From positions 44,206,001 through 44,270,000 of the forward strand of contig OZ024753.1 of the NCBI GenBank assembly GCA_964016885.1: 64,000 nt of DNA, read 5' to 3'. A program made the translations under genes and the position numbers. Origin of the DNA: Eledone cirrhosa (Eukaryota). The notes beneath the pieces were generated by a model. The model was not told the origin of the DNA. It saw nothing but the letters and a program-made list of their open reading frames with translations, and made no database searches. Below are positions 270 through 58,201 of the stretch, one piece after another; within the stretch, counting starts at the first letter, position 1; every line of letters starts with the position of its first letter.

Positions 270-390
270 CCTGGGTTCAATCAGGGGTAACCGCAGTAAG
301 TAAGGGACTCAATACATAGCAGAGTATAAATATATAATATAGAAATGGCTTCTACAGGACTAGAACTGTTTCATTCGGAAGAAATCATCA
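270..390 (-). mobile_element. (TA)n-associated short repeat, family B, with hammerhead-like motif
   Basis: Shares CTCAATACAT..AGAGTATA..TTCTACAGGACTAGAACTGTTTC..GAAATCATCA with other copies; minus strand TGATGA-TTTCttccGAAT-GAAAC..GTC. Confidence 0.65.
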
Positions 391-577
391 TGTGGGTATG
401 CTATGCATTCATGCAAATAGAGTTTAGCTGTCTTAATATGGGAAAAAAAACTTATAGACATGTCATATTGAAGCCTTTCTGAACAATTTCCCTATATCAT
501 CATCATCATCACATCAGACCATTTTTCACATGGTGGAGAATAGAGTCCAGGGCTCATGGCTGGCTGTGAAAGTGTCT

Positions 578-810
578 AGAGTGGCACCCCAATGACTGGC
601 TGTACGAGTGGCACTCCAACAACTGGCTGTACGAGTGGCACCCCAATGACTCGCTGTACGAGTGGCACCCCAATGACTGGCTGTACGAGTGGCACCCCAA
701 TGACTGGCTGCATCTGTGGCACATCTAGAGTGACACTCCACTGACTGGCTGCACCAGTGACACACCTACAGTGACATATCTAAAGTAGCACCCCAACGAC
801 TTGCTGCAAC
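578..810. repeat. 27-bp minisatellite, ~5 clean units plus degenerate units
   Basis: Unit GAGTGGCACCCCAATGACTGGCTGTAC. Confidence 0.9.
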
Positions 811-2219
811 AGTTGCGGTAATGTAAATAAATGAATGAATAGCTAATTTAACACACCTTTTTCTCACACAATTTATTTAAGCCTACATCCAATGTTTTTA
901 TACTCTCCTCAAATTTATCTTTTAATAGTTCATATAGCTTCCCTAGCTTTTAATTTATGAAAATTTTCCCTATCTCCATTTTAATTACTCTAATTTAAGC
1001 CTTTCAAGCTAAATTCATATGTCAACTCCACATCTTTCTATTTTTCTCAACTAATCTGTCATTTCTCTCCTCTATAGCACCAGAATGTATTGTATTTATT
1101 TATCATACTTTAAAATTCTTTATATATTTCATTTTCTCTACCTATTTAATTACTCATTCCAGCTCTTTGAGGTTCTCGTTAATCTAATGGATCTAACTTC
1201 ATTCTCTCGTCACCAATATTTCTCTTTATCCTGCCTTATCTTTAGTTAGTCGACCTCACCTGAAACCAACTTAATTTTAATCCTAACTCATTGCATTAAT
1301 CCCATAATTCTCTTCTTATCTTTCTTTTAACTAACTCTCCAGTTTAATTGATTTTTCATGCAATAGAATATCTCATACAATTTATATGTTTAGTCTATGT
1401 ATAGTTATTACACATTCACACAGGTAGACCACTCACATATATCAATATAAATGCATGTATGTGTGTATATATATATATATATTTATATGTGTGTGTAGAA
1501 ATGTGTTTGTATGTGTGTATGTATATATATGTGAGAGCATATGAATATGTGTGACTGTGTATGCATATATGTGTATGCGTATATCCTCCCTACAAATATA
1601 GTGTTATGTTATAATGTTTTTTTTTGTAATAATAATAATGGTTGTTACCATACCAGTAATACTGAGAATATTTTTAGTTAGAAAATAGAAAAGTCTTTGA
1701 ATGGTAATATGTTTGCCAGAATAAAACTGAAGTTCAACAGCCTGAGAAGCAAACGATTGTTTAGATTAGAGAAAGAAATGACGTTATTTCCTGTTGTAAA
1801 AGAATTACTCTGTTTGAATTTTTAATTTTTTTTATTCAAGATTTTTCCAAACCACATTTTTAGTTTTTATGTTGTTTAATTTTTGTTTTACTTCATAAAA
1901 TTTGTTGTCAAGGTCCCTTTAAATTTCAACGCAATTCTAATCTTATCTCAAAGAATCAAATACTTTTACTGGTAATTGATTTTTTTCCCCCCATTTTTTG
2001 CTGTAGGCAAGAGCAATGGGAGTGCTTGTTAGAGTAGTTCTCATTAGCCATCATCATCTCACCACAAACATCGATAGCATCATTGTGGAAACAAACTAAT
2101 ACTAGATACTAAACTATTTGCCAAAATAATTCCCTATTGATGACGCAAAACTGATGTCAGTAGGGATCTGATAATTTACAATTGGATGATAAAAAGTAAG
2201 ATAGAATATAGTGTTCTAT

Positions 2220-2778
2220 ACAGGATTCCAAACTACAGTAAAAACAGTAATAACTGTGATAACAGCAATAACAACGACAATATCTATAATAAGAGCAATA
2301 ACTGTGATAACAACACTAATAGCAGTAATAACTGTGATAATAACAACACCAATAACAACTAATAACTACAGGATTAATAACAACACCAATAAAAACAATA
2401 TTAACTACAGCAACAACAATGACAATATCTATAATAAGAGCAACAACTGTATTAACTACACTAACAGCAGTAATAACTGTGATAATAACAACTAATAACT
2501 ACAGGATTAATGACTGTAATAACAACAATAACAACAATATTAACTACAGCAATAACAATGACAATATCTATAATAAGAGCAACAACTGTATTAACTACAC
2601 TAACAGCAGTAATAACTGTGATAATAACAACTAATAACTACAGGATTAATGACTGTAATAACAACAATAACAACAGTATTAACTACAGCAATAACAACTG
2701 TAATAATAACAACAGAATAACAACAATAACAACAGTAATAATAACAGCTACAACAACTGTAAAAACAACAATAATAAT
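2220..2778. repeat. (AAC/AAT)-derived higher-order repeat, ~133-148 bp period
   Basis: CAGGATT anchor at 2221, 2369, 2502 and 2641. Confidence 0.85.
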
Positions 2779-2960
2779 GGTTTGTGGTTTAGGCACAGTC
2801 CACACTGTAACGTGGTTGGTGTTTGGAAGGGCATCCAGCCATAGAAACCAAGCCCAAACACAGATCCTTATGAGGAAGATGTGATCTCTACACCTGAATT
2901 GTCTCATAACGTGACAACTCGTCTAACCCATGCAAGCATGGAAAGTAAGTAGTAAGTAAA

Positions 2961-55393: not shown

Positions 55394-57540
55394 GTGTGTG
55401 TGTGTGTATATATGTATGTGTGTATGTATATATATATATGTGTGTGTGTGTGTGTGTGTAGAAATTCAGATATAATGAAGGAATTTAAGACATATTTATT
55501 AGGTCGGGAATGTGTTTTCAAAAAGGTTTAAATATGGAACACCTAGTATTGAGTACAAAATTGTTGAATTGAATGAAGTAATTAACACTGGGATGAGTTA
55601 ATATCAATAACCTGTATTTGTGAAATTTGTAAAGATCGACAAATATTAAGTGTTTTCTTTCTTCTTCATGCAAATATCATTCTGCTGTAGAAATGCTATA
55701 TCTCTCTAATTAAGGTAAATATCTTCATCTTCTCACACAACATAGCTTTGTTTATGCCACTTCTCTCTCTCTCTCTCTCTCTTTCTATCTCTCTCTCTCG
55801 CTCTCTCTCTCTCTCTATCTCTATCTCTATCTCTCTCTCTCTCTCTCTCTCTCTCTCTCTCTCTCTCTCTCTCTCTCTGTCTGCCTCTCTCTCTCATGAT
55901 AAACAGATATTCTCAAGCATGTTAAATAGAAATTTTAGTTTGTTTTTATTTTCATATAATGTATTAGTTGTATTTATTTTATACAAATAATAATAATAAC
56001 AATGATAATAACAATAATCATGATAATAACAACAACAATATTTATTATTATTGTTGTTGTTATTATTATTCATATTTTTGTTATCGTTTGTTATCACTAT
56101 TTAGATTACTTAACTCATTTTTCTATGTTTTCATTTGTGATGAAAATAAAAAAAAACATTATATCCTCCTCCTTCTCCTCCTCTTCCTCCTCTTCCTCCT
56201 CCTCTTCCTCCTCCTCCTCTTCCTCCTCCTCCTCTTCCTCCTCCTCTTCCTCCTCCTTCTCCTTCTCCTCCTCCTTCTCCTTCTCTTTCTCCTCCTCATT
56301 CTTCTTCTTCCACCACATAATAATAATAATAATACAATTCCACCATTGTCTTCCATAGCCAGTTGCCATCAACAGAACTAATGTCCCCACTCCACCCTCC
56401 ACCTCTTGCTATCCCTCTCTATTGTAGCCATTAGTTCTTCTGTCAGTTTTATAACTATGGGCATTTGTTGCAGATGTTAGTTTTCGCAGGAAGAGAATCG
56501 AGTGAATAGAAAGAATATAGAATATTTAAACAGAATGTCTGTCAGCATGGAAACTAATTTAAGATGGTCTGCTTAACGAATTCACATAAATATTGATAAT
56601 CATTCTGGAATTTACAAAATTTCCAGTCCAAATTGATTTTTAACTTTTATTTAATCAATGGAAATTTTGTTGTTTTTGCCCAGCTGAACAATTTATGTGT
56701 TTAAACAACTGCATCGATAAATCCAATTGAAACCATAAATCTAATTGGTGGTTAAGATTGTTTATTTAAATAATGAAGTAAACTGGCTTATCTGTATTTA
56801 TTGTCCCCAATGAATTTAAATTTGTTGGGAAATTCTCAAACTGTTTAAATTGTTGTAAAGCTTTGTACAAACCTTTCATTAGCACAAAAAAGCAATTATC
56901 AGAAGCCATTTACAGAAAAAGGAGAAAAAAAGAAGGAATAATAATAATGATGAAGATAAACAAAACTAAATAAAACACAGAGCAAAATAAAAGGTAAATA
57001 ACAAAAGTTTGTGAATAATAAAAAGATTAGTTCTGCCAAGTTGGCTTAGAAACACTCATACTTCGGTTTCCCCCATTAAAACACACAAACAATGATAACA
57101 CACGATATGATAATAAAAATGTGTGAAAGGAAATTTTGCAATTCCTGTAAAATAATTACTTTCACAATGGAGATTATCGGTATAAATTCCAAATGTTTGA
57201 CTTGCATATGGAATCTTCATGTATTTTAAAAGTTTATTTTTCAAGACTAGTTGGTTGGTTGTTTGTTTTTACAAACAAAATTCACCATCTTTTTATCTCA
57301 GACATGCACATAAAGTTAGAGAAAGCAGTGAACCTTGCATTCTGTCATGATACATCTGACATGAAGAGAACATCAAGTTGAGATGACAGTGATGAGGAAA
57401 AGTTTACGGAGAAAAAGAAAAATGTTATAACGCGGCATTAAAAGAGTTAAAAAAAAATATGGAATAGACTTTAGCAATTGTCTTAGATCCTCTATGAACA
57501 TACTGAAACAAAAACATTCCAAACAAGGACTGAACATAAT

Positions 57541-57725
57541 TGTTTCTACTTTAGGCACAAGGCCAGCAATTACCCAGTGCATTACTGGTACTTTATTTTA
57601 TCGACCCCGTAAGGATGAAAGGCAAAGTCAACCTCGGCGGGATTTGAACTCAGATCGTAAAGGGACGTAACTATGCTGGAAAGCATGGCGTCCGACCCTC
57701 TACCGATACTGCCAATCCACCGCCC
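57541..57725 (-). mobile_element. SINE family B, full length, with TSD
   Basis: Reverse complement of the 12073 copy; perfect 17-bp TSD CAAGGACTGAACATAAT at 57524 and 57725. Confidence 0.92.
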
Positions 57726-57970
57726 AAGGACTGAACATAATAGAATCAAATTCCCATTGTCACTGCTTCCATCCCTCTCGCTCTCTCCATCTCACACTAT
57801 TATAAGTAAATGGGGCGCAAGTGCTGGTCACCTCATGGCTCCAGTGGACAGAAACTTCACTCCTCAAACCCCCAACCACTAGTGTTGGTACTACAATATA
57901 ATGTACAGTTCACACTGTAAAGCAGTAGTGTTGGTGCCACAATAAAATATATGTAATAGTCGCTTCTAAT

Positions 57971-58120
57971 AGGGTACGTCAAAATTATTTATAAAACTGT
58001 TTATATATTGTATTTTGTCTGATGAAGTCATACCATATTTTAATTTGGTATCCCTGAAATAGGTATAATGAAATAAATATGGTTTTATAAATATAGTTTC
58101 CATTTATTTAATATCGTATA
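57971..58120 (+). mobile_element. Hammerhead family 2 element ending in (TA)n
   Basis: Matches the reverse complement of 18437-18584 from AGGGTACGTCAAA to AATATCGTATA, followed by (TA)n. Confidence 0.75.
58011..58075 (+). ncRNA. Type I minimal hammerhead ribozyme, family 2, second copy
   Basis: TATTTTGT-CTGATGA-AGTCATACCA tattttaatt TGGTATCCCT-GAAA-TAGGTA-TA-ATGAAATA. Helix II 8/10 pairs; homologous to 18481-18545. Confidence 0.8.
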
Positions 58121-58168
58121 TATGTATATATATATATATATATATATATATATATATATATATATATA

Positions 58169-58201
58169 CTAGTCCTGTAGAATCTCATCTATATTAAAAC
58201 T
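58169..58201 (+). mobile_element. Family B fragment within (TA)n
   Basis: CTAGTCCTGTAGAATCTCATCTATATTAAAACT is the reverse complement of ~18372-18404. Confidence 0.6.

Follow-up and report, generated by a model that had tools for sequence, protein, structure and literature searches.

A stretch of 64,000 nucleotides of the Eledone cirrhosa genome (GenBank assembly GCA_964016885.1, contig OZ024753.1, positions 44,206,001 to 44,270,000 of the forward strand; hereafter the window, numbered from its first letter) contains short repeats that carry hammerhead ribozyme motifs, complete or broken, and lie in (TA)n microsatellites. They had been predicted to be non-autonomous Penelope-like elements or retrozymes. 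Our analysis shows that families 1, 2 and B, together with the family of a motif at 36344 (family C), are the 3' ends of Penelope-like elements (PLEs), i.e. their pseudo-long terminal repeats (pseudo-LTRs) with or without a short tail, left by copies that are truncated at the 5' end and often inverted. Judging from protein motifs and from a comparison by eye with published proteins, these elements are very probably new families of the known Hydra clade; this degree of confidence refers to the explanation as a whole, namely 5'-truncated ends of Hydra-type Penelope elements, with parents elsewhere in the genome and target-primed reverse transcription as the mode of insertion in (TA)n. The window is microsatellite-rich and has 32% G+C, in a genome of 3.0 Gb whose repeats appear to be of cephalopod type.

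Parent elements and their clade

The genome was searched for families 1, 2 and B, and the best 40 scored candidates per family were examined (identities of 93-100% for family 1, 99% for family 2 and 86-95% for family B). Their flanks show the typical Penelope anatomy: the 3' end is fixed, a tail may follow it, the 5' ends vary and inverted partners occur. Frame sequence was present in seven of eight long stretches of family 1, and in one of them (L305) an unbroken frame of 821 codons lies between family 1 ends. It contains a YRDD core and a C-terminal domain with the pattern Y(F/V/I)G-R-H-E-N, so that a single frame appears to combine reverse transcriptase (RT) and GIY-YIG endonuclease, as in the endonuclease-bearing PLEs; the direct or inverted pseudo-LTRs, the frequent 5' truncation and the one-sided tail are also those of this group. 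In family 2, RT and endonuclease frames are enclosed by direct pseudo-LTRs 4.2 kb apart (L091) and by an inverted pair (L092), and the element is covered by contigs of the runs X1 and X4. For family B, a locus in which a truncated frame adjoins an inverted B end (L134) pointed to a frame-bearing family, here called B-type. Its hammerhead end follows the frame, in sense orientation, in 12 of 16 extended loci (at a distance of 1.6-3.7 kb in 11 of them) and in 5 of 30 short ones; in L264 and L259 the 5' end plus tail runs into the start of the frame. The family C end is linked to a coding frame in L104. Ends of families 1, 2, B-type and C thus belong to long elements with RT and GIY-YIG-type frames, which bears out the original prediction of a diversified, Penelope-type set but not its view of the families as non-autonomous short elements.

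The encoded proteins represent divergent lineages, with identities of 40-49% among family 2, B-type and family C, and of about 53% between families 1 and 2. Among their neighbours in a protein language model (0.96-0.98) are clusters in which 31-50% of the members are annotated with GIY-YIG and 18% with RVT_1, and 18 unnamed relatives were found at 29-38% identity. Further Hydra-type frames that correspond to no window family occur in L094 (4828-6459), L089, L110, L118, L134 (5849-7015), L148 and L162. The first of these loci had been considered as the parent of family 1 and was rejected in favour of L305, being a different Hydra family next to a family 1 insert.

The diagnostic features of the Hydra clade are the motifs DKT, which replaces DKG, and RW(K/R), a CxCx5C linker, CxxC and CxH motifs, the lack of CCHH and a C-terminal endonuclease (Craig et al., 2021; PMC8557442); the same source states that canonical hammerheads are readily detected in this clade and that almost all its families insert in (TA)n. 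In the frames described here, SDKT occurs with RWR in family 2 and B-type and with RWT or RWI in family 1, while the family C copy is truncated before both motifs. Families 1, 2, B-type and C all have the CxCx5C linker, and CxxC and CxH around the E and N residues, and lack CCHH. RT precedes the endonuclease, with no N-terminal CxC block, in L305, L091/L092, L264 and L104, and a canonical hammerhead in the pseudo-LTR goes with insertion in (TA)n. The Naiad group was rejected: its endonuclease is N-terminal and it has no canonical hammerhead, in contrast to the window families. The original prediction had left open whether the families were catalogued; their kind is, as the Hydra clade.

Hammerheads, tails and (TA)n tracts

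Repeats were confirmed at the places predicted for families 1 and 2 and at all six predicted for family B (Table 1). Family 1 forms one inverted pair (10104-10420) with arms 95% identical, and the two family 2 places (the inverted pair at 18441-18700 and the copy at 57960-58116) are 91% identical. That the repeats bear hammerheads holds in full for only three window copies, which have a complete type I core; the others are truncated or mutated. A strict hammerhead descriptor gave two matches in the window and none in the reversed window. The left-arm hammerhead of the family 1 pair is predicted to be inactive from its A9 to U change, and in none of the six family B copies do helix I and the whole core occur together. 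The single motifs noted at 36344, 17871 and 11530 proved to belong to three repeat families (C, D and E, respectively), but as half or decayed copies. At 17871 the CTGATGA is offset from the core of family D, and the CTGATGA at 11580 cannot be the core of family E because that element lies on the minus strand. Most window copies are dead remnants, and the conserved structure belongs to the parent lineages. An Rfam scan of the window showed no hammerhead among the 150 of 305 matches that were listed, these being microRNA models on microsatellites. In family E, also seen in L284-L298, the first core strand has eight bases and helix III is fully palindromic.

Table 1. Repeat copies and other repeats in the window (positions from the first letter of the window)
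Feature	Position	Strand	Remarks
Family 1 tail, about 90 nt	10009..10098	-	Bulged hairpin 10064-10090; runs into (TA)n tract 9894-10008
Family 1 pseudo-LTR, inverted arm	10104..10251	-	Hammerhead 10135-10205, A9 changed to U
Family 1 pseudo-LTR, 5'-truncated arm without tail	10262..10420	+	Type I hammerhead 10319-10389, complete, with cleavage predicted after 10381; loop 3 palindromic; parent L305
Family 2 pseudo-LTR without tail	18441..18600	-	Complete hammerhead 18481-18545, predicted cut after 18489; element end in (TA)15 at 18410-18440; parents L091, L092
Family 2 inverted arm with tail	18617..18787	+	Truncated inside helix II; hairpin 18704-18725; (TA)n at 18788
Family 2 copy, 5'-truncated	57960..58116	+	Complete core; hammerhead 58011-58075 with a single mismatch in helix II; (TA)n begins at 58125
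Family B copy with tail	264..391	-	Truncation at core position 3
Family B copy with tail	18301..18409	-	Truncation in helix III; hairpin 18346-18366; flanked on both sides by (TA)n
Family B short inverted pair	19551..19627	-	Junction in palindromic loop of helix III; part of tail deleted
Family B decayed copy with tail	20103..20243	-	Without core position 3 and helix I
Family B inverted pair	54886..55045	-	Core kept; helix I 5' strand replaced by inverted arm; tail end meets (CA)7, then (TA)n
Family B 33-nt 3' remnant	58169..58201	+	Between two (TA)n tracts
Family C hammerhead 3' half	36333..36395	-	GAAA, helix III, GUC site, helix I 3' strand; parent L104
Family D decayed copy	17874..17990	+	Helix II partly deleted; source repeat has a Hydra-type hammerhead and tail
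Family E decayed copy	11502..11600	-	Repeat with hammerhead-like fold, U3-A8-type core plus one extra base
100-nt repeat copies	12167-12266, 15644-15754, 21264-21369, 21523-21627, 32465-32571, 40042-40144, 41410-41513, 57536-57635, 62735-62836
Minisatellite arrays	15984-16799, 28408-28987, 34847-35696, 38279-39167, 40476-40765		Units of 65, 73, 24, 68 and 72 nt, respectively

The type I core (CUGANGA, GAAA, NUH and three helices) found in the three window copies recurs in 253 motifs, forming 41 clusters, in 1.41 Mb of fetched loci, and in none of the reversed sequence. The helices II of families 1 and 2 had been described as unrelated in sequence. They are instead homologous, since in both 3 bp are followed by a C-C or C-U mismatch and then by about 6 bp, and they covary: among the 12 variants of the family 1/2 group that were seen at least twice, position 4 is mismatched in all, while positions 1-3, 5, 6 and 8-10 switch pair types. 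The variants are related to one another and the comparison is not a formal test, but the covariation is in line with the predicted selection on RNA structure. In family C, a pattern with positions 3, 7 and 8 left free has 5,720 exact matches genome-wide and none in the control. The first 100 matches listed, inspected by eye, all have A8, together with U3 (76) or C3 (24), and all four bases occur at position 7. U3-A8 cores are known from Schistosoma PLEs (Cervera and de la Peña, 2014; PMC4209133), whereas C3 opposite A8 is a mismatch predicted to impair cleavage; such cores recur at many places, often as inverted pairs. C17 is found in all seven U3-A8 clusters, as opposed to 6 of 34 C3-G8 clusters (the clusters are not independent), family E apparently being an exception. 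When single motifs are folded to minimum energy, helices I and II form but helix III does not, as would be expected of motifs thought to act as dimers; this is not evidence about activity.

The adjacency to (TA)n is real. In an unselected sample of 39 stretches of 10 kb (390 kb), the descriptor gave 33 matches (one locus accounts for two of them, and two others seem fortuitous) and no match in the same sequence reversed. Of the 33, 21 lie within 100 nt upstream of a (TA)5 and 31 within 200 nt, as opposed to 8.5% and 14.3% of random positions. Of the 16 arms in the window, 15 run up to a tract of six or more TA units, the exception being the copy at 264, which ends in a degenerate TA-rich stretch. 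The 40 pseudo-LTR ends of family 2 are followed by the tail in 18 cases, by at least four TA units in 20 and by interrupted TA in two; the 22 tail ends of this family are followed by (TA)4 or more (18), by the element's own frame (two) or by CA and then TA (two). The layout with a terminal (TA)n assumed in the original prediction is not general, however, as the first neighbour of 39 family B tail ends is (CA)n in 20, (TA)n in nine and neither in 10.

Chains of several Hydra families in one (TA)n tract, each beside the previous end, were observed in L003, L011, L023, L025, L027 and L029, and families are likewise chained within one tract at 18301-18787 and 57960-58222 of the window. In addition, the long 3' region of the B-type parent (L220, 1850-3430; L221; L224) bears (TA)n, (TG)n, (TTTA)n and (TTTTC)n, so that long copies would seed new microsatellites and new targets.

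In families 1, 2, B, C and others, the tail starts with RCTC, a stem-loop of 3-4 bp, two bulged bases and GAGYRC. This motif occurs 26 times in the unselected 390 kb and once in its reverse. Although pairing was not required by the search, the register with a two-base bulge forms a paired stem in 17 of the 49 distinct matches, and each position shows several pair types; the corresponding figures are one or two of 49 for four other registers and one of 25 for reversed sequence. By eye, the same hairpin can be recognized in the published consensus sequences of Hydra-2_Amil, Hydra-1_Ajap and Hydra-2_Ajap and, with one change, in Hydra-1_Crog (PMC8557442, supplement). Neither hairpin nor stem-loop is used as a word in the main text of that paper, although its supplement or figures may mention the structure, and this hairpin at the tail start, conserved across families and phyla, appears to be an unreported detail. 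In 40 of 44 inverted pairs one end, and one only, bears the tail, and in none do both, although degenerate tails may be missed; the pseudo-LTR end and the tail end both fall at TA in the element's own sequence. The AATAAA expected in the 3' segment is present in families 1, 2 and D, against a background of 6% per 60 nt; that of family 1, however, overlaps both helix I and the cleavage site.

Probable mode of insertion and alternative explanations

Insertion at (TA)n is likely to proceed by target-primed reverse transcription. For the Poseidon element PAc, cleavage of two strands, two internal RT start sites around the tail and a dispensable hammerhead cleavage have been shown in vitro (Frangieh et al., 2024; PMC11167929), which fits the present findings. 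We infer that the GIY-YIG-type endonuclease would nick both strands of a (TA)n tract, that the RT would bind the bulged hairpin at the tail start, and that internal UA sites at the pseudo-LTR end and at the tail end would each serve for priming. Both cDNAs would usually stop early and be joined head to head, which would yield short palindromic inserts with the tail on one arm only. The spans of the inverted pairs differ in all 11 pairs of family 1, all nine of family 2, all 11 of family B and six of eight of family C (37 of 39). Of 163 bystander copies, only 1 starts less than 3 nt from the cleavage site; in the long copy L091, a whole hammerhead stands at the 5' end. These two facts suggest that the templates are likely to be uncleaved RNAs, from which the hammerhead would be copied whole or broken off at various points.

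A number of points weigh against this explanation. None of the six long copies of family 2 has one unbroken frame. The B-type parent is only 76-85% identical to the window B copies, i.e. it is a younger sister subfamily, and the exact parent of the older copies was not reached, the upstream walk having stalled in (TG)n/(TA)n. No frame had a direct RT or GIY-YIG match in sequence scans of Pfam and PDB, so that the naming of the domains relies on motifs, the published alignment and language-model neighbours; a single-sequence structure model of the frame was unusable (mean predicted local distance difference test score of 31). The length of less than 3 kb usual in Hydra elements, which is a tendency and not a strict criterion in PMC8557442, is exceeded by family 2 (about 4.2 kb), and the B-type has long 3' regions. 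Finally, in families B and C the 5' ends concentrate within the ribozyme, 35-47 nt upstream of the cleavage site; plain random truncation does not account for this, and part of it may come from divergence from the references used.

This clustering leaves room for some re-mobilised short copies. Families B, C, D and E could in fact be mainly non-autonomous palindromic units of 100-150 nt, re-mobilised in trans by Hydra proteins. The 5' ends of 35 of 37 family B and 49 of 72 family C copies lie clustered inside the ribozyme, short copies far outnumber long ones (in the 390 kb the B core has 14 matches and the region upstream of it none), and the tail hairpin is retained by a short copy. We nevertheless consider this unlikely, in view of the differing inversion spans of the family B and C pairs, of the upstream sequence shared by the longer B copies, and of the frame-linked parents of B-type and family C. 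Far less probable still are non-LTR retrozymes, which consist of tandem repeats of 150-450 bp and are copied through circular RNA by a rolling-circle mechanism. They would have in common with the present repeats type I hammerheads with a short, partly palindromic helix III, and a kinship between retrozymes and the pseudo-LTRs of PLEs has been reported (bioRxiv 10.64898/2026.07.22.740005). However, only eight of the 253 motifs have a neighbour of the same family and strand within 600 nt, five of these across a TA tract, the copies are inverted and not head to tail, and the 5' end coincides with the cleavage site in one copy out of 163. As no tandem head-to-tail monomers of 150-450 bp without a coding parent were found among the 253 motifs (1.41 Mb), the retrozyme part of the prediction is largely refuted by the absence of arrays.

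It had also been proposed that the elements target or extend (TA)n. They could create or lengthen the tract by telomerase-like repeat addition, considering that the RTs of PLEs are sister to telomerase (PMC8557442), that young ends adjoin long pure tracts of 5-44 units, and that some tracts border on internal parts of other repeats, at points where the homologues lack TA. These interior cases fit the 5'-truncated ends of other retroelements in the same tract. Moreover, tracts beside ends are hardly longer than others (median 13.5 and 12 units), a library match adjoins at most about 70 of 269 tracts (a rough figure, the library being contaminated with other repeats), and no convincing pair of filled and empty sites was obtained for flanked copies of families 1 and 2, the two candidates being both poor. 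Extension thus seems improbable, while targeting of (TA)n is supported.

Returning to target-primed insertion by Hydra-type elements, the hairpin might be a clade-wide recognition element, from corals and sea cucumbers to this genome, which would position the two priming sites in such a way that almost all insertions arise by twin priming from the two strands of a (TA)n tract on uncleaved RNA. We offer this tentatively, and jointly with the reading of hammerhead density given below, the two together being possible but somewhat less than an even chance.

Abundance and comparison with known elements

Across the genome, 80,596 matches were counted for one exact pattern of the family 1/2 group, with none in reversed sequence, and a broader descriptor found 40 motifs in the 390 kb, distributed over 20 of the 39 stretches. 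By extrapolation, the genome is likely to contain about 307,000 predicted hammerhead motifs (bootstrap 192,000-438,000). Published counts are 126,247 for the axolotl (Cervera and de la Peña, 2020; PMC7229834) and 2,000-9,000 motifs per genome for PLE hammerheads (PMC4209133); our comparison covers these figures only, and no record is claimed. With about 100 motifs per Mb and dozens of Hydra lineages, some of them young, this genome may be among the most hammerhead-dense of animals, which is the other half of the tentative joint reading. In comparison with the axolotl count, a figure of about 3 x 10^5 would make Hydra elements a major and under-annotated component of the genome.

The class of object described here is known, and the window itself is therefore ordinary repeat debris; what appears to be new is the scale, the tail hairpin, the tail at exactly one end of nearly all inverted pairs and the scarcity of 5' ends at the cleavage site. 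The poorly understood insertion mechanism of Penelope elements and the role of their hammerheads become directly testable, since one family is young, keeps its frame unbroken, has a simple target in (TA)n and offers a candidate recognition hairpin of 22-30 nt. In addition, thousands of natural variants provide covariation data on hammerhead architecture, such as the C-Y mismatch of helix II and the U3-A8 core with C17. A literature search found no paper on a Hydra expansion or a hammerhead count in cephalopods beyond PMC8557442.

The window also contains other repeats. Immediately after a (TA)n tract, positions 10882-11020 hold what we take to be the tRNA-like head of a short interspersed element (SINE). 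The 3' ends of repeats of long interspersed element (LINE) type terminate in (ATG)n, often by (TA)n (10660-10840, 11080-11235, 11672-11719 and others), and RT frames of such elements are present in L094 and L151. A repeat segment of 100 nt, likely a SINE 3' part, has about 10 copies, with an AT-rich run at its end, and the 73-nt and 72-nt units of two minisatellites resemble each other.

Among known systems, metazoan non-LTR retrozymes (PMC7229834) similarly have type I hammerheads and very high copy numbers, but they are head-to-tail tandem repeats expressed as circles, whereas the repeats studied here are dispersed, inverted and truncated ends of coding elements. The PLE hammerheads of PMC4209133 resemble them in being of type I, located in pseudo-LTRs, with a long helix II and a short palindromic helix III, and in having copies that are mostly single and truncated; here, in contrast, the closing pairs are A10.1-U11.1 or U-U and helix II has a conserved C-Y mismatch. 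The Poseidon element PAc of Anolis (PMC11167929) shares a tail bounded by two RT start sites, the cutting and extension of both target strands, an AT-rich target and a hammerhead that is dispensable in vitro. It belongs, however, to another clade, with a hammerhead overlapping the start codon and with RT start sites in an AC-rich stem-loop instead of a bulged hairpin, and the parts of that paper considered here describe no microsatellite targeting.

As regards the Hydra clade itself, the sole Octopus family in the parts of PMC8557442 considered here is Hydra-1_Obim of Octopus bimaculoides, listed in the supplement with insertion in (TA)n, and its hammerhead matches no window family. Those parts report few families, of less than 3 kb and with tails of 30-40 nt, as compared with about 40 motif clusters, elements of about 4 kb and tails of about 60-90 nt in E. 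cirrhosa. On the other hand, the extended U-U core of family B matches Hydra magnipapillata families (supplement S2), and the hammerhead in the pseudo-LTR, the insertion in (TA)n, the inverted truncated copies and the one-sided tails are all shared with the Hydra clade.

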